64,000 bases of DNA, taken from the NCBI GenBank assembly GCA_003141555.1, contig PLMN01000012.1, positions 139,487 through 203,486 of the forward strand. Direction: 5' to 3'. The stretch is from Candidatus Aminicenantes bacterium (lineage in GTDB: Bacteria > Acidobacteriota > Aminicenantia > Aminicenantales > UBA4085). The notes under the pieces are model-generated. The model was given only the letters and a program-made list of their open reading frames with translations, was not told the origin of the DNA and did no database searches. Positions 2,213 to 48,934 of the stretch are shown one piece after another. Numbering within the stretch: the first letter of the stretch is position 1; each line of letters begins with the position of its first letter. The position numbers and the translations under genes were made by a program.

Positions 2213-2292
2213 AAAGCCCCCATTTTTTTCTTTCCTAAACACCCGTCCCCGTTCCGGCGTATCATTAGACGAGAACGGAATCCGCGGATCCG

Positions 2293-2838
2293 ATGGACGA
2301 CAACGAAATCGTAGCGGCCTGCCTGCGGGGCGAGAAGGAGGCTTTCCGTCGGATCATGGAAACGCACAGCGGACCGGCTCTGGCCCTGGCACTCAACATT
2401 CTGGGAAACCGCCAGGACGCCGAGGACGTTTGCCAGGAGGCGTTCGTCCAAGCGTACAAGAACCTGGCCCGCTTCGATGGACGAGCGCATTTCCGAACCT
2501 GGCTTCTAACCATCGTCTATCGGCGCTCCCTCGATCAATTGAAGCGGAAGAAGCGTTTCCGGATCGCCGCCGAAAGAGCCGGGCGCGAAATTTCCCCGGC
2601 TTCACGGGCCGGCGGCGATCCGCCAGCCGGCGTTGGTGGATTTTTGCTGCCGGATGAATGCCTCAGGCGCCTGAGCCCGAAGGAGCGGACAGTCCTTTGT
2701 TTATGGACGGATGAAGATCTCTCCGCGGTCGAAATCGCCGCTGTGCTCGGATGCGCCGCCTCGACCGCCCGGGTCACGCTCTTCAACGCGCGGCGGAAGC
2801 TCAAATCTTCCTTGGAGAAAGCCCATGCGGCATCATAG
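2293..2838 (+). CDS. ECF (RpoE-like) sigma-70 family sigma factor
   Basis: Region 2 reads ...DAEDVCQEAFVQAYKNLARFDGRAHFRTWLLTIVYRRSLD. Region 4 has the HTH ...LSAVEIAAVLGCAASTARVTLFNARRKL. Confidence 0.85.
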   Translation: MDDNEIVAACLRGEKEAFRRIMETHSGPALALALNILGNRQDAEDVCQEAFVQAYKNLARFDGRAHFRTWLLTIVYRRSLDQLKRKKRFRIAAERAGREISPASRAGGDPPAGVGGFLLPDECLRRLSPKERTVLCLWTDEDLSAVEIAAVLGCAASTARVTLFNARRKLKSSLEKAHAAS

Positions 2839-3316
2839 CTGGATCAATTTCCTCCTTCGAATCCTGCCGTTCGCAGCCTGGAAAGATGCCCTGATCCGCG
2901 GCCACGTCGAGCGCTGCCCGGAGTGCGGCCGTCGGCTGGTCACGGCCGAGGAGGCGCGGCGGGCGATTGTCCGAACGGAGAGCGTGGGCAATACGGACCG
3001 GCTGCAGCGGGAGATCGCGCTAACAATAGCGGGAATCGCGCCCGCGCCGGCCCCGACACAAGAGAGATCGACCTCCGCCCTCGCGCGTCCCTTGCGCTGG
3101 GCCGCGGCGGGCGCCGGGCTGATCACGGCCGCTTTCGCGACCGCCGCACTCGTATTCTTTTTCCGGCCGGCGCCGCCTTCGGGGGCCGCCGAGGCGAACG
3201 AGGCCGATCAGTTTCAGATCAATTATGCGATGATCGCGGACGAGCCCGCTCAAACATACATTTTCAAGCCCCATGACTCGGATGTCGTCATCATCTGGGC
3301 GGGGAAAACACATTGA
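2825..3316 (+). CDS. Zinc-finger anti-sigma factor (single transmembrane helix)
   Basis: The ATG at 2825 overlaps the end of the sigma gene. An HVERCPECGRRL (HxxxCxxC) motif is present. A TM segment (AAAGAGLITAAFATAALVFFF) follows. Confidence 0.55.
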   Translation: MRHHSWINFLLRILPFAAWKDALIRGHVERCPECGRRLVTAEEARRAIVRTESVGNTDRLQREIALTIAGIAPAPAPTQERSTSALARPLRWAAAGAGLITAAFATAALVFFFRPAPPSGAAEANEADQFQINYAMIADEPAQTYIFKPHDSDVVIIWAGKTH

Positions 3317-3336
3317 GTGGTCATAGGAGGGAAATC

Positions 3337-4584
3337 ATGACTAAGAGAGGGATCCTTTTATTGGTATCCTTGCTTCTCGTTCTAGGGACGGCGGTTCTCG
3401 CCTCGGCTCAAGCCAAGCCGCCGGCTGACGATTCTTGGACGATGAAAATGCGTGTCTACGAAGTCCCCGGTAAGGGAAGCGGGACACCTGTTAAATCCGT
3501 CACGTCGTCCTATTTAAATTACAAGCTGACAGCCACCATCAAGACCGAGTACGACCTGGCCGAGGAGATGAAGCAGATCCAGAAGACGTTCAACTACGCC
3601 GATGTCAAGCTTCTGACCGAGGCGGACTTCGCCTGGAAGCGGAACGATCGCGAGCGGGCTTTCCACATCTTCCGGCTGGACGGGCACGAATATGTCGTCC
3701 TGATCACCCCCATCGACGTCGTCCGCCGGCTGACTTTCCGGCTCGAAGTCCTCGAGCAGGGCGAAAAATCAAAGGTCAACCTATTTGATACGGAATTCAC
3801 CATCCCCGAGAAGAATATCGCTGTCTTCGGCTTCGAAGATTCGAAGGGCGGCGTTTATTTTCTGTCCTTCCGCGTTACGGGCTGGGCCCCGACACTCCCG
3901 GGTGTGATCGTCGAGAGCCGGCCGTTTCCTGAAGGCGTCGTCGCCGGCGGGACTGTGGGCGGCGTCCTGGGCGAAGGCCCCGTCCGCGCCGTAGGCGAGA
4001 TCAAGCCGCCGCGGCTTCTCAAGCAGGTCGATCCGGTTTATCCAGAGATTGCCCGCGTGGCTCAAGTCGAAGGTGTCGTCATCCTCGAGGCTATGACCGA
4101 TATCTATGGCCGTGTTTCGAACGTGAGGATCCTGCGCTCGATCCCGCTCCTCGACCAGGCGGCGATCGATTCTGTCCGGCAGTGGGTGTATGAGCCGTTC
4201 ATGCTCGAAGGCAAGCCGCACGGCGTCATCTTCACCGTCACGGTCAGGTTCGCGCTGGACGGCGGCCAGGGCAAGCCTGCGCCGCGGAAGGACGGCGAGC
4301 CGCTTAAGATCACGGGCGATGTCAAAGGCCCGAAGCTGATCAAGCAGGTCGACCCGATCTATCCCGAGATCGCGCGGCAATCGCAGGTCGAAGGCGTGGT
4401 CATACTCGAGACTACGACCGATATTTACGGCCGCGTCCAGAGCGTGAAGGTCCTGCGCTCGATCCCCCTCCTCGACCAGGCGGCGATCGACGCCGTCCGG
4501 CAATGGGTCTATGAGCCTCCGCTTATCGACGGCAAGCCTATCTCGGTGACGTTCACCGTGATGGTGAGCTTTAAATTGAAATAG
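3337..4584 (+). CDS. Secreted protein with two tandem TonB C-terminal domains
   Basis: The start MTKRGILLL is preceded by AGGAGGG, and a signal peptide is present. Two ~100-aa repeats (KPPRLLKQVDPVYPEIA...WVYEP and KGPKLIKQVDPIYPEIA...WVYEP) match the TonB_C fold signature. Confidence 0.65.
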   Translation: MTKRGILLLVSLLLVLGTAVLASAQAKPPADDSWTMKMRVYEVPGKGSGTPVKSVTSSYLNYKLTATIKTEYDLAEEMKQIQKTFNYADVKLLTEADFAWKRNDRERAFHIFRLDGHEYVVLITPIDVVRRLTFRLEVLEQGEKSKVNLFDTEFTIPEKNIAVFGFEDSKGGVYFLSFRVTGWAPTLPGVIVESRPFPEGVVAGGTVGGVLGEGPVRAVGEIKPPRLLKQVDPVYPEIARVAQVEGVVILEAMTDIYGRVSNVRILRSIPLLDQAAIDSVRQWVYEPFMLEGKPHGVIFTVTVRFALDGGQGKPAPRKDGEPLKITGDVKGPKLIKQVDPIYPEIARQSQVEGVVILETTTDIYGRVQSVKVLRSIPLLDQAAIDAVRQWVYEPPLIDGKPISVTFTVMVSFKLK

Positions 4585-4593
4585 GGGAAAAAC

Positions 4594-4632
4594 GGGACGG
4601 TTCTATTTTCTTCGGATAACGGAACCGTCCCC
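4594..4632. terminator. Bidirectional intrinsic terminator hairpin between convergent genes
   Basis: GGGACGGTTC...GAACCGTCCC forms a perfect 10-bp stem with a T-rich flank. It lies between the stop at 4584 (+) and the stop at 4649 (-). Confidence 0.5.
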
Positions 4633-4648
4633 TTTCTTATCTTTTGCC

Positions 4649-5650
4649 TTACTTCTGTACTTCGGCCTTCGCTGGCGGCGTCGTCTTCGAGTAATCGTAC
4701 TCCGATCCCAATACGCTGTGGGGGATGGAGTAGATGACCATGAGCAATACGGCCGCGGCGACCGTCCAGGTGCGAGCCTGCCGTCCCTTGCGCATCAGGT
4801 AGAGGACCCCGATCCAGAGGACGAGGGCGATGAGCGTCTTGTTGTCCGTCAGGTCGAATCCGATCGGAATGCCCGACCAGAAAACGCCGAAGCTGTACTT
4901 CTGAACGATCGGCCCGAGGACGAACCCGCCCAGGAAGAGCATGACCGCCGCCCCCTTGGCCCAGGAACGATGGTCGAAATCGAGCGGGAGAGCGGCCAGC
5001 AGGCTTCCGAGGCCGATGGCGACGGGGATGCAAAGCCAGAGCAGGTTCGTGCCCATAATCTTTGGGATTCCCACGATCTTGAGGATCGCATAGGCGGCCC
5101 CGATCCCGATCACGAACAGGAGGACACCCGGCAGGAGCCTGAATTTCGGCCATTCCTTGGCCTTGCCAAAGGCGGCCAGGCCGGCCAGCGTCGAGAAGAG
5201 CATGGCCAGGAACATGACGATCACGTGGGGGATGAGGATCCAGGATGGGACCACGCCCTTGAACCGGATGACGACGGGCGTGTCGCCGTTGAGAGCCGCC
5301 TCCTCGCCGTCCTGGACGAGAACCACCCGGTAGGCGAGCTTTCCGGCCGCGGGCTGTTTGGGAAGGCTGCCCGCCAGGCCGCCCTGCTTGTGCTCCATCG
5401 GGACCTTCGTCCAGGGGGCCTGGGTCTTATAGCGCATGTATTCGATATAGCCCTCGAGCCCGCCCGTCCCTCGAACCATGATTTCGCAGTCCGCGGCGTT
5501 CTCCGCGCTGCGGGGCAGGCGCGCTTTGACCACCTTGCCGCCGATCGTCGCCTGGCCGCCGGCGGGATACGTCGGTCCCGTCAGGCGCTGGTAGACGGCC
5601 GCGCCGAGGGTGATGAGGACGGCCAGGATCCAAAGCACGAGTCTCTTCAT
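4649..5650 (-). CDS. Hypothetical polytopic membrane protein with a periplasmic N-terminal domain
   Basis: A signal or TM segment is followed by a ~130-aa soluble region and about 6 hydrophobic helices. No family was recognised. Confidence 0.5.
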   Translation of the reverse strand: MKRLVLWILAVLITLGAAVYQRLTGPTYPAGGQATIGGKVVKARLPRSAENAADCEIMVRGTGGLEGYIEYMRYKTQAPWTKVPMEHKQGGLAGSLPKQPAAGKLAYRVVLVQDGEEAALNGDTPVVIRFKGVVPSWILIPHVIVMFLAMLFSTLAGLAAFGKAKEWPKFRLLPGVLLFVIGIGAAYAILKIVGIPKIMGTNLLWLCIPVAIGLGSLLAALPLDFDHRSWAKGAAVMLFLGGFVLGPIVQKYSFGVFWSGIPIGFDLTDNKTLIALVLWIGVLYLMRKGRQARTWTVAAAVLLMVIYSIPHSVLGSEYDYSKTTPPAKAEVQK

Positions 5651-5714: not shown

Positions 5715-6440
5715 TCAGTCCTTGATCGTGACCGCTCCCATGATCGCCGCGCCCTTGACGTAGAACGTGGCCTTGACTTCGGCGTCGGGCACGGCGGGAT
5801 GCTTATCGTCGAATCCGCCCAGGATCGGCGTGCCGTGCATCACCACGCGCCAATCGCGCGGGACGAAGATATCCACGGCGCCCATGATGGCCGTGGCGTC
5901 GAGCGTCGCCTTCCCCCCGTCGAGGCCCGCGCCCCGGAAATCGAGCTCGAGGCCGCCCATGATCGCCGTCACCCGCCCGCCGCGGAAATTCTGGGATTCG
6001 ATCCGGCGCTTCATCCCGCCGAGAAGGCAGGAGACGTCGATATCGGAATCGTGGATCTCCGGAAATTTGCCCGCATCCCCGCCGCCGCCCCCGGCCCGCC
6101 GGAATACGCCGCGGAACAGGATCCACAGGCCGACCAGGATGATCAGGACCGGCCACATGTATTCCCAGACGTCGTAGGCGAGAAGGTCGAGCGAATTCAG
6201 GAGGAAGAGGCCGCCGAGGACGATGAAGAACAGGCCCGCCCCCGGCCTCCGGAAGCCGTTCCCGATCAGGATGGAGACGCCCAGGATGATGATGATCACG
6301 GGCCAGTACGTCCCGATCAGGGTCCCGAAATCCAGCCCGCCGATCCGGTCGAGCAGGAAAAGGACGCCGAAGACGACCAGAATAAGCCCCCAGAAAATGC
6401 CGCCCTGGTGGTGGTGGTGATAATGTCTTTCTTCGGACAT
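5715..6440 (-). CDS. LiaF-like / DUF2154 (toastrack) membrane protein with a His-rich N-terminus
   Basis: The start MSEERHYHHHHQGG at 6440 is preceded by AAGGAGG. TM helices are followed by a C-terminal Gly-rich repeat domain (GGMKRRIESQNFRGGRVTAIMGGLELDFRGAGLDGGKATLDATAIMGAVDIFV). Confidence 0.5.
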   Translation of the reverse strand: MSEERHYHHHHQGGIFWGLILVVFGVLFLLDRIGGLDFGTLIGTYWPVIIIILGVSILIGNGFRRPGAGLFFIVLGGLFLLNSLDLLAYDVWEYMWPVLIILVGLWILFRGVFRRAGGGGGDAGKFPEIHDSDIDVSCLLGGMKRRIESQNFRGGRVTAIMGGLELDFRGAGLDGGKATLDATAIMGAVDIFVPRDWRVVMHGTPILGGFDDKHPAVPDAEVKATFYVKGAAIMGAVTIKD

Positions 6441-6516
6441 GCGATCCTCCTTCATGACGCGGACGCGCGTCCTATATACCATATATACGGGGCCGAGGCG
6501 AATAGGTTGCGGCCCC

Positions 6517-6608: not shown

Positions 6609-7397
6609 CTACAAGCGGGCGATGTCCATCCCCCCGCTGACCTCGAGGATGAGCCCCGTCGAATAGGGAAACGCGCCCCGGGCCAGGGCCGCGACGGCCT
6701 TGCCGACGTCCTCCGGGAAGCCCCATCGTTTCTGTGGAAGGAATCCCGCGGCGATCAAGGCGTCGTACTTTTCGCGCACGGCGGTCGTCATATCCGTCCG
6801 GATAATGCCCGGCCTGATCTCGTAGACGTTGATTCCGTACTCGGCCAGCCGATCGGCGTAGAGCCGGGCGGCCATGCTCAGGCCGGCCTTGGAAATGCAG
6901 TACTCGGCCCGCGACGTCGAGGAGACGCGGGCCGACGTCGAGGTGATAAAGACGATGGCCGGCTTCAGGTCCGGGGCCGGCGCCTGCTCGATCATGACCC
7001 GGGCTGCCTTCTGGGTGAGGAAAAATGCGCCCCGCAGGTTGATCCTCATGAGGCGGTCGAAGCTTTCGGGCGTCGTCTCCAGGACGTCCCGGCGCTCCGC
7101 CGGCGCGACGCCCGCGTTATTCACCAGGAGGTCGAGCCGGCCGTATCTCTCCCGGACGGCGGCGAGCAGCCCGGCGTGGGCTTCGAGCGCGGCGATATCG
7201 GCCGCGAGGGGCAGGAATTCCCCGCCGCGCTTTTCCACGGCCGCCTTCACCTCGAACAGGCCGTCCCCCGCGTTCGCGGGATCGAAGACGATGTCGCAGC
7301 CGGCCAGGTCGAAGCCTGCTCCGGCCAGCTCCAGGGCGATGCCGCGGCCGATGCCGCGCCCCGCCCCCGTGACGAGCGCTGCCGGTTTGTGGTGCAT
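6609..7397 (-). CDS. Short-chain dehydrogenase/reductase (SDR) family oxidoreductase
   Basis: TGAGRGIGRGIA Rossmann motif. NNAG motif. The catalytic S...YxxxK region reads YCISKAGL. The start MHHKPAAL has a GAGGAGG RBS. Confidence 0.8.
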   Translation of the reverse strand: MHHKPAALVTGAGRGIGRGIALELAGAGFDLAGCDIVFDPANAGDGLFEVKAAVEKRGGEFLPLAADIAALEAHAGLLAAVRERYGRLDLLVNNAGVAPAERRDVLETTPESFDRLMRINLRGAFFLTQKAARVMIEQAPAPDLKPAIVFITSTSARVSSTSRAEYCISKAGLSMAARLYADRLAEYGINVYEIRPGIIRTDMTTAVREKYDALIAAGFLPQKRWGFPEDVGKAVAALARGAFPYSTGLILEVSGGMDIARL

Positions 7398-46638: not shown

Positions 46639-47232
46639 ATGAAATCCTGGATTCGAGAGATTCGGACATCGCTCCGGGCAACGGCGGCCCTGGTGGTGCT
46701 TCTTTGCGGGCTTTATCCCCTGGCCGTCTGGGGGCCGGCCCAGATCCTCTTCCCGGCGAAGGCCAACGGCTCGCTTCTCGTTCGCGACGGAAAAGTCGTC
46801 GGCTCCGAGCTCATCGGCCAGGGATTCACGGGCGCGGGGTATTTCCATCCCCGTCCTTCGGCCGCGGGCGGTGGATACGACGCCCTGGCCTCGGGGGGCA
46901 GCAACCTGGGACCGTTGTCGAAAGACTTAATCGAAAGCGTCCGGGGGCGCGCGGCCGCCTATCGCGCCGAGAACGGTCTGGAGCCCGGCGCGGCGGTCCC
47001 GGCCGATGCCGTGACCGCTTCGGGCAGCGGACTCGACCCCCATATCTCGCTTCAAAACGCTGGCCTCCAGACTCCGCGCGTTGCCCGGGCCCGGGGCTTG
47101 ACCGAAGCCGCGGTCCGGGAGCTGATCGGATCATTGGCCGAAGGCCGCGACCTGGGGATCTTCGGCGAGGCGAGGGTGAATGTCTTGAAGCTCAATCTCA
47201 CCTTGGATGAAAAACGCGATGGCGGACGATAG
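46639..47232 (+). CDS. kdpC: Potassium-transporting ATPase subunit KdpC
   Basis: Single N-terminal TM. KdpC signature (GSGLDPHIS). 197 aa. Confidence 0.85.
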   Translation: MKSWIREIRTSLRATAALVVLLCGLYPLAVWGPAQILFPAKANGSLLVRDGKVVGSELIGQGFTGAGYFHPRPSAAGGGYDALASGGSNLGPLSKDLIESVRGRAAAYRAENGLEPGAAVPADAVTASGSGLDPHISLQNAGLQTPRVARARGLTEAAVRELIGSLAEGRDLGIFGEARVNVLKLNLTLDEKRDGGR

Positions 47233-48934
47233 GGCCAACGAGTTCCTGCAGCTGATCCGACAATCGCAGCGCGGACGTCTGAAGATCTATCTCGGCTACA
47301 GCGCCGGCGTGGGGAAGACCTACCAGATGCTCCAGGAGGGCCACCGCCTTAAGAGCGACGGCATCGATGTCGTGATCGGCCTGCTCGAGACGCATGGCCG
47401 GACGGCGATCGCCGAGCTGGCCAAGGGACTCGAAGTCGTACCGCGGCGCCGCCGGGATTATCGGGGGATCGCCGTCGAGGAAATGGACGTGGATGCCGTC
47501 CTAGCCCGAAAACCGCAGGTCGCCCTGATCGACGAGCTGGCCCACACCAACGCTCCCGGCAGCCGGAACCCGAAGCGCTATGAGGACGTGCTGGACGTGC
47601 TGGCCGCGGGAATCCACGTCATCACCACCTTGAACGTCCAGCACCTGGAAAGCCTTTACAACATCGTGGAGAATGCCGTCGGGGTCAAGGTGCGGGAACG
47701 GATCCCGGATTCGGTGCTGGTCGAGGCCGACCAGATCGTCGACGTGGATCTGGCGACCGAGGATCTCCGCAAGCGCCTGGAGGACGGCAAGATCTATCCG
47801 CAGGAGCGCATCGCGACCGCTTTGAGCAATTTTTTCATCCCTTCCAACCTCGAGAAGCTGCGAGAACTGACCTTGCGCGAGCTGGCCGCCCAGATCGATT
47901 TCCGCCGGAGGGAAGCCAAGAGCGAGGCGGGCGAGACCGAAGGGGACCAGGTGATGGTCTGCCTGAGCTCGCATGGCCCGAACAGCGAAAAGCTCCTCCG
48001 GTACGGTTCGCGTCTCGCCGGAAAGCTCAACCGCAACTGGTACGCGGTCTATGTCCAGACCCCTTCCGAAGAGGCCACGGTCATCGACGCGAAAGTCCAG
48101 CGCATGCTCTCGGATACGCTGACCTTGGCCAAACAGCTAGGCGCGCTCGTGTTCACCTACAAGGGGGAGAATATCGCGGATACGATCCTCCGCTTCGCCC
48201 GGGAATACCGCGTTGGCCACATCGTCGTCGGCAAGTCGGTCCCCAAGCCGGTTTGGAAGAGGATCGGCCGGAACAAGGCCGTCGTGGAGGACCTCATTGC
48301 TGAGGCGAGGGGGGTGACGGTGATCGTCGTCGATCCCTGCCCGGCCGTCGCGCCGGCCCTCGCCCGGCCCCGGCCGGAGGATGACCGGCGGGAAGAGGGG
48401 TTCGGGAAGGCGGACGCCGAAGGGCCGGAGGCAGCCCCCTCGGCGCCCATCGTGCGCGATCTGCTCAGCCCTTGGCTTTCCCCGCGGCGCATCGTCCTAT
48501 GGGGAGTCCCCGTCGCCAAAGAACAGGTCCTTCGGACGCTTGCCGAGACGGTCAAAAACGAAGACGGCGTTTCCGACCCGGAGAAGCTCTACGCGGACAT
48601 CCTGATCCGGGAGGAGCAGGGATCCACGTTCTTCAACGAGGGCGTCGCTTTCCCTCACGTCCGGGTCGAAGACCTGGCCGCTCCGGTCGTAGCCCTGGGA
48701 TTGACGCGCGGGGGCGTGGCGGATATCTCGACCGACAAGCCGATCGAGCTCGTCTTCCTCATCCTTTCTCCCGCCGGGAACCCTCCCCTTCAAGTGAAGC
48801 TGCTGGGGGCGGCGAGCCGGGCCGCCCAGAGCCGTCCTCTTCTTCAAGCCCTGCGCTCGGCGGAGACGCCCGACGAAGTCCTGCGGGCCATCGTGAACTG
48901 GGAAGCGTCGATTCCGCGCTCCCTGGGCGCGTAA
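47207..48934 (+). CDS. KdpD N-terminal sensor domain plus Usp domain fused to a PTS EIIA(Ntr)/PtsN-like domain, with no TM or histidine-kinase region
   Basis: The KdpD-N P-loop region reads LKIYLGYSAGVGKTYQM...ALIDELAHTN. The Usp domain reads VMVCLSSHGPNSEKL.... The C-terminal EGVAFPHVRVE...ELVFLILSPAGNPPLQVKLL... matches the PTS_EIIA_2 His-site pattern. Confidence 0.8.
   Translation: MKNAMADDRANEFLQLIRQSQRGRLKIYLGYSAGVGKTYQMLQEGHRLKSDGIDVVIGLLETHGRTAIAELAKGLEVVPRRRRDYRGIAVEEMDVDAVLARKPQVALIDELAHTNAPGSRNPKRYEDVLDVLAAGIHVITTLNVQHLESLYNIVENAVGVKVRERIPDSVLVEADQIVDVDLATEDLRKRLEDGKIYPQERIATALSNFFIPSNLEKLRELTLRELAAQIDFRRREAKSEAGETEGDQVMVCLSSHGPNSEKLLRYGSRLAGKLNRNWYAVYVQTPSEEATVIDAKVQRMLSDTLTLAKQLGALVFTYKGENIADTILRFAREYRVGHIVVGKSVPKPVWKRIGRNKAVVEDLIAEARGVTVIVVDPCPAVAPALARPRPEDDRREEGFGKADAEGPEAAPSAPIVRDLLSPWLSPRRIVLWGVPVAKEQVLRTLAETVKNEDGVSDPEKLYADILIREEQGSTFFNEGVAFPHVRVEDLAAPVVALGLTRGGVADISTDKPIELVFLILSPAGNPPLQVKLLGAASRAAQSRPLLQALRSAETPDEVLRAIVNWEASIPRSLGA

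Follow-up and report, generated by a model that had tools for sequence, protein, structure and literature searches.

Within a 64-kb stretch of DNA from Candidatus Aminicenantes bacterium (contig PLMN01000012.1, positions 139,487 to 203,486 of the forward strand; hereafter the window, in which all coordinates below are positions), we identified a locus of three genes. They encode a sigma factor of the extracytoplasmic function (ECF) kind, a single-pass anti-sigma factor with a zinc-type HxxxCxxC motif, and an exported protein that joins a domain particular to this family (the N-domain) to two TonB C-terminal (TonB_C) domains. Judged from its sequence, the locus is one transcription unit running from promoter to terminator, and the same trio recurs in what we take to be a lineage-wide signalling module of Aminicenantes (Acidobacteriota). 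The module looks like an undescribed envelope signalling system, a non-canonical representative of the cell-surface or envelope type of ECF system. We tentatively propose that its exported protein may be a receptor-like periplasmic adaptor, linking the state of the envelope or of its transporters to sigma release. The TonB_C repeat within this protein is ancient.

The features of the locus are listed below, from 5′ to 3′, with lengths in nucleotides (nt) or amino acids (aa).

2235..2262, + strand: ECF-type promoter (predicted), with CTAAAC as -35 (2235-2240) and GGCGTAT as -10 (2256-2262); the sigma start lies about 30 nt downstream
2293..2838, + strand: ECF (group 4) sigma factor, 181 aa, SigW-like, from Pfam, NCBIfam and PDB matches
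2825..3316, + strand: single-pass anti-sigma factor, 163 aa; true start at ATG 2825 (MRHHSW...)
2903-2926, + strand: zinc-type motif of the anti-sigma factor, H27-x3-C31-x2-C34 (H27-VER-C31-PE-C34), in the cytoplasmic domain, with H3/C4 upstream
3098-3163, + strand: transmembrane helix of the anti-sigma factor, aa 92-113
aa 114-163 of the anti-sigma factor, + strand: its periplasmic tail, about 45 aa
3212..3304, + strand: conserved C-terminal mini-domain within the periplasmic tail, aa 130-160, FQINYAMIADEPAQTYIFKPHDSDVVIIWAG
3337..4584, + strand: exported protein, 415 aa, with signal peptide, N-domain, Gly-rich linker and two TonB_C domains; likely start at ATG 3337
3337..3408, + strand: Sec-type signal peptide, MTKRGILLLVSLLLVLGTAVLASA/QA (/ denotes the cleavage position), read directly from the sequence
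3433..3891, + strand: module-specific N-domain, aa 33-185, about 150 aa, beta-rich
3991..4269, + strand: TonB_C unit 1, aa 219-311, with a TonB-like Gly-rich linker before it
4312..4581, + strand: TonB_C unit 2, aa 326-415, with the best PF03544 stretch at aa 340-414
4594..4646, + strand: intrinsic terminator between convergent genes, with an 11-bp GC-rich stem (4594-4631) and a U-rich tract after it

Organization and conservation of the three-gene locus

The three genes are closely packed. The anti-sigma gene overlaps the sigma gene by 14 nt, and only 20 nt separate its stop codon from the ATG of the third gene (gene 3), which has a GGAGG 8 nt upstream; the public gene call on identical contigs gives gene 3 the same start and the same 415 aa. 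A sequence-only reading of this DNA had proposed an operon of a sigma gene, an overlapping HxxxCxxC anti-sigma gene and an exported tandem-TonB_C protein, and we find each of these features where that reading had placed it. A terminator scan found no terminator within the operon. The hairpin at its 3′ end folds as RNA at -25.1 kcal/mol (z = -2.96 against shuffles); this terminator was missed by the simple scan, probably because of its long loop.

Upstream of the sigma gene, CTAAAC and GGCGTAT are the sole conserved blocks in an alignment of six orthologous upstream regions. They are separated by 15 nt, with 17 nt between their AAC and CGTA cores. The motif has one match in the window against 0.1 expected, and it recurs at the equivalent site 5′ of sigma in about 20 module loci. 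It resembles the consensus of B. subtilis sigma-W, TGAAAC-N16-CGTA. An AAC element at -35 with a CGT element at -10 is characteristic of autoregulatory ECF promoters, and we predict that the module's own sigma factor uses this one.

The sigma factor matches Sigma70_r2 (E 2e-18) and Sigma70_r4_2 (E 9e-10) in Pfam, with no match to region 3 or region 1.2, and its score against TIGR02937 (85 bits, cutoff 42.9) places it in the ECF superfamily. Among proteins of solved structure, its best match is SigW of B. subtilis (5wuq_A, E 1e-18). Its putative partner is less readily classified: the anti-sigma factor has no Pfam match at E 0.1 or better and reaches only 21 bits against NF052375 (cutoff 100). 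The best PDB match of its profile is RsiW (5wuq_C), a weak match (E 0.014) that is aligned across HxxxCxxC. This motif is invariant in the six closest orthologues and is also present in the distant loci L010 and L012, and position 3/4 is a His or Cys in every full-length sequence. HxxxCxxC, an upstream His/Cys ligand and a gene directly after that of the sigma factor together mark the protein as a putative zinc anti-sigma (ZAS) factor of class I, for which zinc binding and sequestration of the sigma factor are predicted.

Besides the zinc motif, the best conserved segment of the anti-sigma factor is the mini-domain of its periplasmic tail. Residues A142 and W158 do not vary, even among loci that are only 22-30% identical, and the pattern of the C-terminal 30 residues (FQINY..PAQTYIF.P...VVIIWAG) is conserved even at 20-30% overall identity. 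The mini-domain probably consists of three beta strands. The last strand of the tail (D-S-D-V-V-I-I-W-A) loosely resembles a TonB box and could be a docking strand for a TonB_C domain.

The product of gene 3 begins with a basic n-region of four residues (MTKR). Next come a 17-residue hydrophobic core, which contains no His, and the cleavage motif A-S-A (ASA/QA). All full-length members of the family begin with a signal peptide, though a few have a lipobox instead. These features point to export of the protein to the periplasm.

The N-domain that follows has no Pfam, PDB-sequence or convincing fold match. Because the fold search with the full-length structure model returned only TonB C-terminal domains, the N-domain was also modelled alone; a Foldseek search of that model against the PDB gave nothing significant, with LolA at E 0.44. 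An exhaustive search of 1.84 billion representative proteins recovered the N-domain in 157 clusters at 50% identity, in all of which, save fragments, it is followed by one to four TonB_C domains. The most distant members have a single TonB_C. Other domains are added in some members, either a partial GWxTD domain ahead of the N-domain or a Wza-type Poly_export domain at the C-terminus. In a sister branch (L095 4524-5828; L097 1167-2951; P0200), the N-domain is followed by TonB_C, optionally by two STN domains, and by a Peptidase_M23 domain, again behind sigma and anti-sigma genes. The STN match there scores 38 bits (cutoff 28.4), and the M23 match scores 121 bits with its HxxxD and HxH motifs intact. 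STN is present only in the L097 sister-branch protein; the window protein has no STN match at E 0.1 or better.

One short segment of the N-domain, V-T-S-S-Y-L (aa 55-60, window 3499-3516), is invariant and falls in the lowest-confidence loop of both structure models. From this placement, a linear docking motif seems likelier than a strand of the core. The segment could be a docking strand for a TonB_C domain.

Linkage among the three genes is strict. The sigma gene and a gene of this anti-sigma family lie directly 5′ of the N-domain gene in all loci with enough upstream DNA (28/28), and the anti-sigma family is absent from all 62 retrieved loci that lack the N-domain. The trio is found in the close homologues L001-L008 and in L010, L012 and L013, where the N-domain is only 25-30% identical and the neighbourhoods are unrelated. 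It is found as well in L095-L098, which were reached from the anti-sigma side and of which L095 and L097 are in unrelated neighbourhoods. Such linkage is typical of physically interacting partners.

Two genes on the opposite strand converge on the operon. The nearer (4649-5650, - strand) encodes a 333-aa protein with several predicted membrane spans and no Pfam match, and the next (5715-6449, - strand) encodes a LiaF-like protein. In all of the Aminicenantes loci these two genes are in synteny with the module, but this does not hold for the distant module loci.

On the other side of the operon, the sigma gene is preceded by a TPR gene. In two other loci a second ECF motif, TAAAC-N17-GGCGTAT, lies 5′ of this gene (L001 5053-5078, L002 5174-5199). 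The orthologous region of the window, at about 500-660, has no copy of the motif and holds a repeat-bearing insert there instead. Because the window lacks the motif that L001 and L002 have there, we do not count the TPR gene as part of the module; it may be a regulon member in some genomes. The insert occupies AT-rich intergenic DNA 5′ of the TPR gene (394-647). A 30-nt element occurs there in two direct copies with 42-nt spacing and in two inverted copies about 140-180 nt further on, the arms at 395-424 and 606-635 being 93% complementary. There are no further copies of this element in the window, and the repeats resemble an operator array or the termini of a miniature transposable element.

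The TonB_C units and their relation to TonB

The sequence-only reading had described two consecutive TonB_C domains, repeated with a period of 321 nt at about 80% DNA identity and sharing a near-identical stretch of 38 nt. Each of these observations holds. In a profile check, PF03544 matched the protein in two stretches at E 4e-38, above the gathering threshold and with the fold of a TonB C-terminus. The direct repeat spans 3994-4250 and 4315-4571 with the period of 321 nt, and the aligned units are 78.4% identical over the exact ranges that the earlier reading had used. The 38-mer itself has a single exact occurrence, and its partner departs from it at one base of the 38. The repeat goes unreported by Tandem Repeats Finder, being too diverged at that scoring.

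What fails is the conclusion that had been drawn from the repeat, namely a recent tandem duplication, which synonymous divergence (dS) and the phylogeny of the units refute. Between units 1 and 2, dS is 0.94 by the Nei-Gojobori method and 0.85 by LWL85, with a nonsynonymous divergence (dN) of 0.19 and dN/dS of about 0.2. The two units are 66% identical as protein (97 aligned codons) and 54% identical at third codon positions. Between the window gene and its orthologues in other genomes dS is 0.8-3.4, so that silent divergence between genomes is like that between the units. Furthermore, in a distance analysis, not one of 368 units is nearest to another unit of the protein it belongs to. The units instead cluster by position: unit 1 of the window is nearest to unit 1 of its orthologues and unit 2 to their unit 2 (distances of 0.08-0.27), while the two window units are 0.30 apart. 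Unit 2 is the positional orthologue of unit 2 in both two- and three-unit homologues.

The 38-mer has its own explanation. It encodes LRSIPLLDQAAID, which is the best conserved peptide of each unit in all genomes, and we attribute the near-identity of the 38-mer to this family-invariant peptide combined with the codon bias of the genome. Gene conversion was considered as its cause and rejected, since the DNA of the same motif is identical at 36 of 39 positions between units of unrelated genomes.

The tandem arrangement is also far more widespread than this gene. The 120 best homologues share its architecture of signal peptide, N-domain and two, three or four TonB_C domains (18, 80 and 23 proteins, respectively), and copy number varies from two to four among syntenic orthologues. 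In two-unit proteins, within-class unit identity is 0.77-0.78 and the second unit matches unit 2 of three-unit proteins, which suggests that the window's clade lacks the last unit. A recent internal duplication peculiar to this gene, possibly kept alike by gene conversion, would fit the DNA identity of the units and the 37/38 identical stretch. Given the silent divergence, the absence of any unit closest to one in its own protein, the equal conservation of the 38-nt stretch between genomes and the architecture common to all 120 top homologues, it is hardly tenable.

These units have a close counterpart outside the module in the TonB of the same lineage. Our genome scan used the full-length alignment, the alignment of diverse N-domains being too variable, and its results also included many loci that have just one TonB_C, a very similar one; 32 of these loci have exbB within 400 nt downstream. 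Where the N-terminal part lies in the retrieved DNA, the proteins of such loci have a cytoplasmic N-terminus, a transmembrane helix with a His, a run of 12 Pro and a Gly-rich linker. By these features, the exbB-linked loci are those of the genuine Aminicenantes TonB. A genuine tonB-exbB-exbD operon is seen in loci L034-L081, as at L070 2515-4503, with 12 consecutive prolines and a long (GGV)n linker.

Module units share a mean of 58-71% identity with the C-terminal domains of genuine TonB. For the window units the means are 71% (unit 1) and 73% (unit 2), with a maximum of 79%. In a table of class-mean identities, no positional class of unit is closer to another positional class than to genuine TonB. 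Of the 93 aligned columns, 41 show ≥80% conservation and the same residue in the two sets, the YP motif and the final strand among them, and the Gly-rich linker before unit 1 is shared with genuine TonB as well. The identity of about 70% to the host TonB C-terminus strengthens the premise that the units bind TonB boxes, and we infer that they would recognize the same TonB-box strands as the cell's own TonB.

Public annotation goes further and names the gene 3 product a 'TonB family protein' or 'energy transducer TonB'. With its bona fide TonB_C domains, the protein could on this view be a genuine TonB paralogue that keeps an uncleaved N-terminal anchor and transduces energy with ExbB/ExbD. The comparison with the genuine TonB of the lineage, with its His-bearing helix, 12 Pro and exbB/exbD immediately downstream in 32 loci, makes this very improbable. 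The n-region of the gene 3 product is only four residues long, its core lacks His, an A-S-A site follows, and a globular beta domain stands where the proline rod would be; some orthologues, moreover, are lipoproteins. Neither TonB nor exbB/exbD was found among the window genes scanned. The sequence-only reading had likewise held that this is not a real TonB, and it was right in that the anchor with a conserved His, the proline rod and the exbBD neighbour are all missing.

Two further genes with tandem TonB_C domains came to light in other module-bearing genomes. In L010, the gene directly after that of the module protein (6616-7260) encodes a 214-aa protein with two TonB_C domains. L031, which belongs to the same metagenome-assembled genome as module locus L015, encodes a 227-aa protein (2813-3612) with an N-terminal hydrophobic segment, two TonB_C domains and no N-domain; the promoter motif ATAAAC-N15-GGCGTATT lies about 90 nt 5′ of its start. 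The L031 gene could be a regulon member or a chance match, as two matches of the motif in about 350 kb of non-module DNA are near expectation.

Possible roles of the exported protein

We propose, tentatively, the following mechanism for a periplasmic adaptor. The membrane anti-sigma factor would hold the sigma factor through its zinc-motif domain and expose a short, conserved, beta-rich tail in the periplasm. The exported protein, located in the periplasm and not acting as an energy transducer, would contact this tail through its family-specific N-domain, while its two TonB_C units (one to four elsewhere) would dock on TonB-box strands of outer-membrane proteins. The state of an outer-membrane transporter or of the envelope could thus set the stability of the anti-sigma factor and, with it, sigma release; the signal may run in this direction. 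Released sigma would then re-induce the operon from its own promoter, a positive feedback.

Several lines of evidence lead us to this proposal. The first is the anatomy of the operon, together with its conserved promoter and the strict linkage of the trio. What the anti-sigma factor exposes in the periplasm is too small for a sensor, yet it is the best conserved segment of the protein. Across the family the N-domain is constant and the other modules vary, in keeping with a transmitter that stays the same while the modules for input or anchoring change. There is also the precedent of VreA, taken with the co-occurrence of TonB_C and STN in the sister branch, and the best solved relatives of the sigma/anti-sigma pair are SigW and RsiW.

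VreA of P. aeruginosa (PA0674), whose gene lies with those of VreI and VreR in the PUMA3 system, is located in the periplasm and combines an STN domain with a C-terminal domain that is TolA/TonB-like (PMC2729926). Like the gene 3 product, it is a mostly soluble, receptor-like periplasmic protein with a signal peptide and a TolA/TonB-like C-terminus, and its separate N-terminal domain is proposed to touch the sigma regulator (PMC2729926). In both systems the gene adjoins those of an ECF sigma factor and a membrane regulator, features on which the gene 3 product qualifies as VreA-like, and the sister branch of the module family pairs TonB_C with STN. The differences are considerable. Gene order is vreA-vreI-vreR in PUMA3, whereas the module runs sigma, anti-sigma, gene 3. 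VreR is a large FecR-type protein, and the module's anti-sigma factor is small and RsiW-like, with a zinc motif and a tail of 45 aa. In place of the N-terminal STN of VreA, the module has an unrelated beta domain of 150 aa. Finally, the C-terminus of VreA is only remotely TolA-like (9% identity), whereas module proteins have two to four bona fide TonB_C domains at about 70% identity to the host TonB.

Other known systems each share part of this design. SigW/RsiW has a single-pass anti-sigma factor, an AAAC-N16/17-CGTA promoter and an autoregulated operon, but it is Gram-positive, has no third periplasmic partner gene and has an RsiW extracytoplasmic part unrelated to that of the module; RsiW is known to be controlled by proteolysis through PrsW and RasP, which for the module is no more than an assumption. 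FecA/FecR/FecI pairs an ECF sigma factor with an anti-sigma factor in the membrane, and the interaction of TonB box and TonB_C is part of its signalling logic. In contrast, the module has no FecR-type regulator by Pfam and no adjacent TonB-dependent transducer among the window genes scanned, and the TonB-like element, not a transporter, is what its operon encodes. RpoE/RseA/RseB places a sigma factor, a single-pass anti-sigma factor and a periplasmic protein in one autoregulated operon, and the module's periplasmic protein could, like RseB, guard the anti-sigma tail against proteolysis. RseB, however, has a LolA-like fold and senses lipopolysaccharide intermediates, whereas the N-domain has no significant similarity to LolA or RseB, and RseA has no zinc motif. 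From TonB itself the module protein differs in having tandem TonB_C domains and an unrelated N-domain, without the features of a transducer.

A number of observations weigh against an adaptor of this kind. The structure model of the N-domain is of only moderate confidence. The M23 domain of the sister branch, apparently active by its motifs, is more like an output enzyme than a sensor, and gene 3 is itself also a sigma target, since it sits inside the autoregulated operon. HxxxCxxC could mean that the input, redox or zinc, is purely cytoplasmic, in which case a partner in the periplasm would not be required. In addition, no TonB-dependent receptor, with or without STN, was found among the scanned genes of the window, nor were TonB-dependent receptors found in the retrieved loci.

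The position of gene 3 within an autoregulated operon, behind an ECF promoter, also fits a different role, in which its product is an output of the sigma factor: a multivalent, soluble competitor for TonB boxes that shuts down TonB-dependent import, in effect an 'anti-TonB' decoy. Envelope stress, toxic uptake, or phages and bacteriocins that use the TonB route could be the occasions for such a shutdown. The units are close to the host TonB C-terminus and under strong purifying selection (dN/dS of about 0.2), two to four copies would give avidity, and extra small tandem-TonB_C genes adjoin the module (L010) or follow a matching promoter motif (L031). Howard et al. reportedly found in 2001, in J Bacteriol, that periplasmic TonB C-terminal fragments are dominant-negative in E. 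coli, which is a further point in favour. This role would leave unexplained, however, the constant presence of a conserved 150-aa N-domain, the conserved periplasmic tail of the anti-sigma factor, and the fact that the gene is never apart from this anti-sigma factor (28/28); the most distant members, moreover, hold only one TonB_C. We regard a decoy, the main rival of the adaptor, as rather unlikely. The sequence-only reading had itself suggested, as a possibility, a decoy or a signalling component under ECF control, an idea that is still plausible. The adaptor and the decoy can be combined as a feedback loop, in which a soluble, sigma-inducible multi-TonB_C protein would sense and/or block TonB-box exposure and report it, via its N-domain, on the TonB-box-like end of the anti-sigma tail. 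We hold this combination, too, to be rather doubtful.

The domains that accompany the N-domain elsewhere allow yet another role, that of an envelope tether or enzyme chassis in a SigW-like envelope-stress regulon. Here the N-domain and TonB_C would anchor periplasmic activities, or structural links, to outer-membrane proteins or peptidoglycan. The sister branch, with its two STN domains and a peptidoglycan peptidase of the M23 family whose catalytic motifs are intact, is consistent with such a chassis, as are other members with a Wza-type Poly_export domain. For the clade to which the window belongs, additional TonB_C domains would serve as the cargo and cross-link the envelope. Within Aminicenantes, the LiaF-like envelope-stress genes keep their place beside the module, but this neighbourhood is not kept in the distant module loci, and a tether explains the strict anti-sigma linkage no better than the adaptor does. 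A tether seems decidedly unlikely to us, and the periplasmic adaptor is the role we put forward, with the reservations given above.

Novelty and significance

One further gene of the window deserves mention. Downstream of kdpA and kdpB, positions 47207-48934 encode a 575-aa protein that combines a KdpD N-terminal sensor domain with an EIIA-2 domain of the phosphotransferase system (PTS) and has no histidine-kinase domain at E 1e-5 or better. The fusion recalls the known regulation of KdpD by EIIA-Ntr.

ECF sigma factors, zinc-motif anti-sigma factors and TonB_C domains are known kinds of protein, and it is their combination that appears undescribed: a small RsiW-like anti-sigma factor whose beta tail is conserved, the N-domain, and TonB_C in tandem at about 70% identity to the host TonB, all strictly inherited together throughout a lineage. 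The module was not found in the main text of the ECF reclassification paper, nor in the literature searched on Aminicenantes TonB, on ECF together with TonB_C, and on tandem TonB C-terminal domains. ECF systems are classed largely by their anti-sigma factors and conserved partner genes, and here the partner contributes the N-domain, a new protein domain. Hundreds of such proteins carry the wrong annotation 'energy transducer TonB'.

If the exported protein is indeed an adaptor or a decoy, a TonB docking domain would have been recruited as a free-standing periplasmic module that senses or controls outer-membrane transporters, complementing the single and poorly understood precedent of VreA. If the combined feedback loop is true, it would be a natural 'anti-TonB' and a sensor of TonB-box occupancy with built-in feedback, a new wiring of TonB biology to transcription. 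Furthermore, the module offers a way into the envelope signalling of Aminicenantes, a lineage that is widespread but uncultured.

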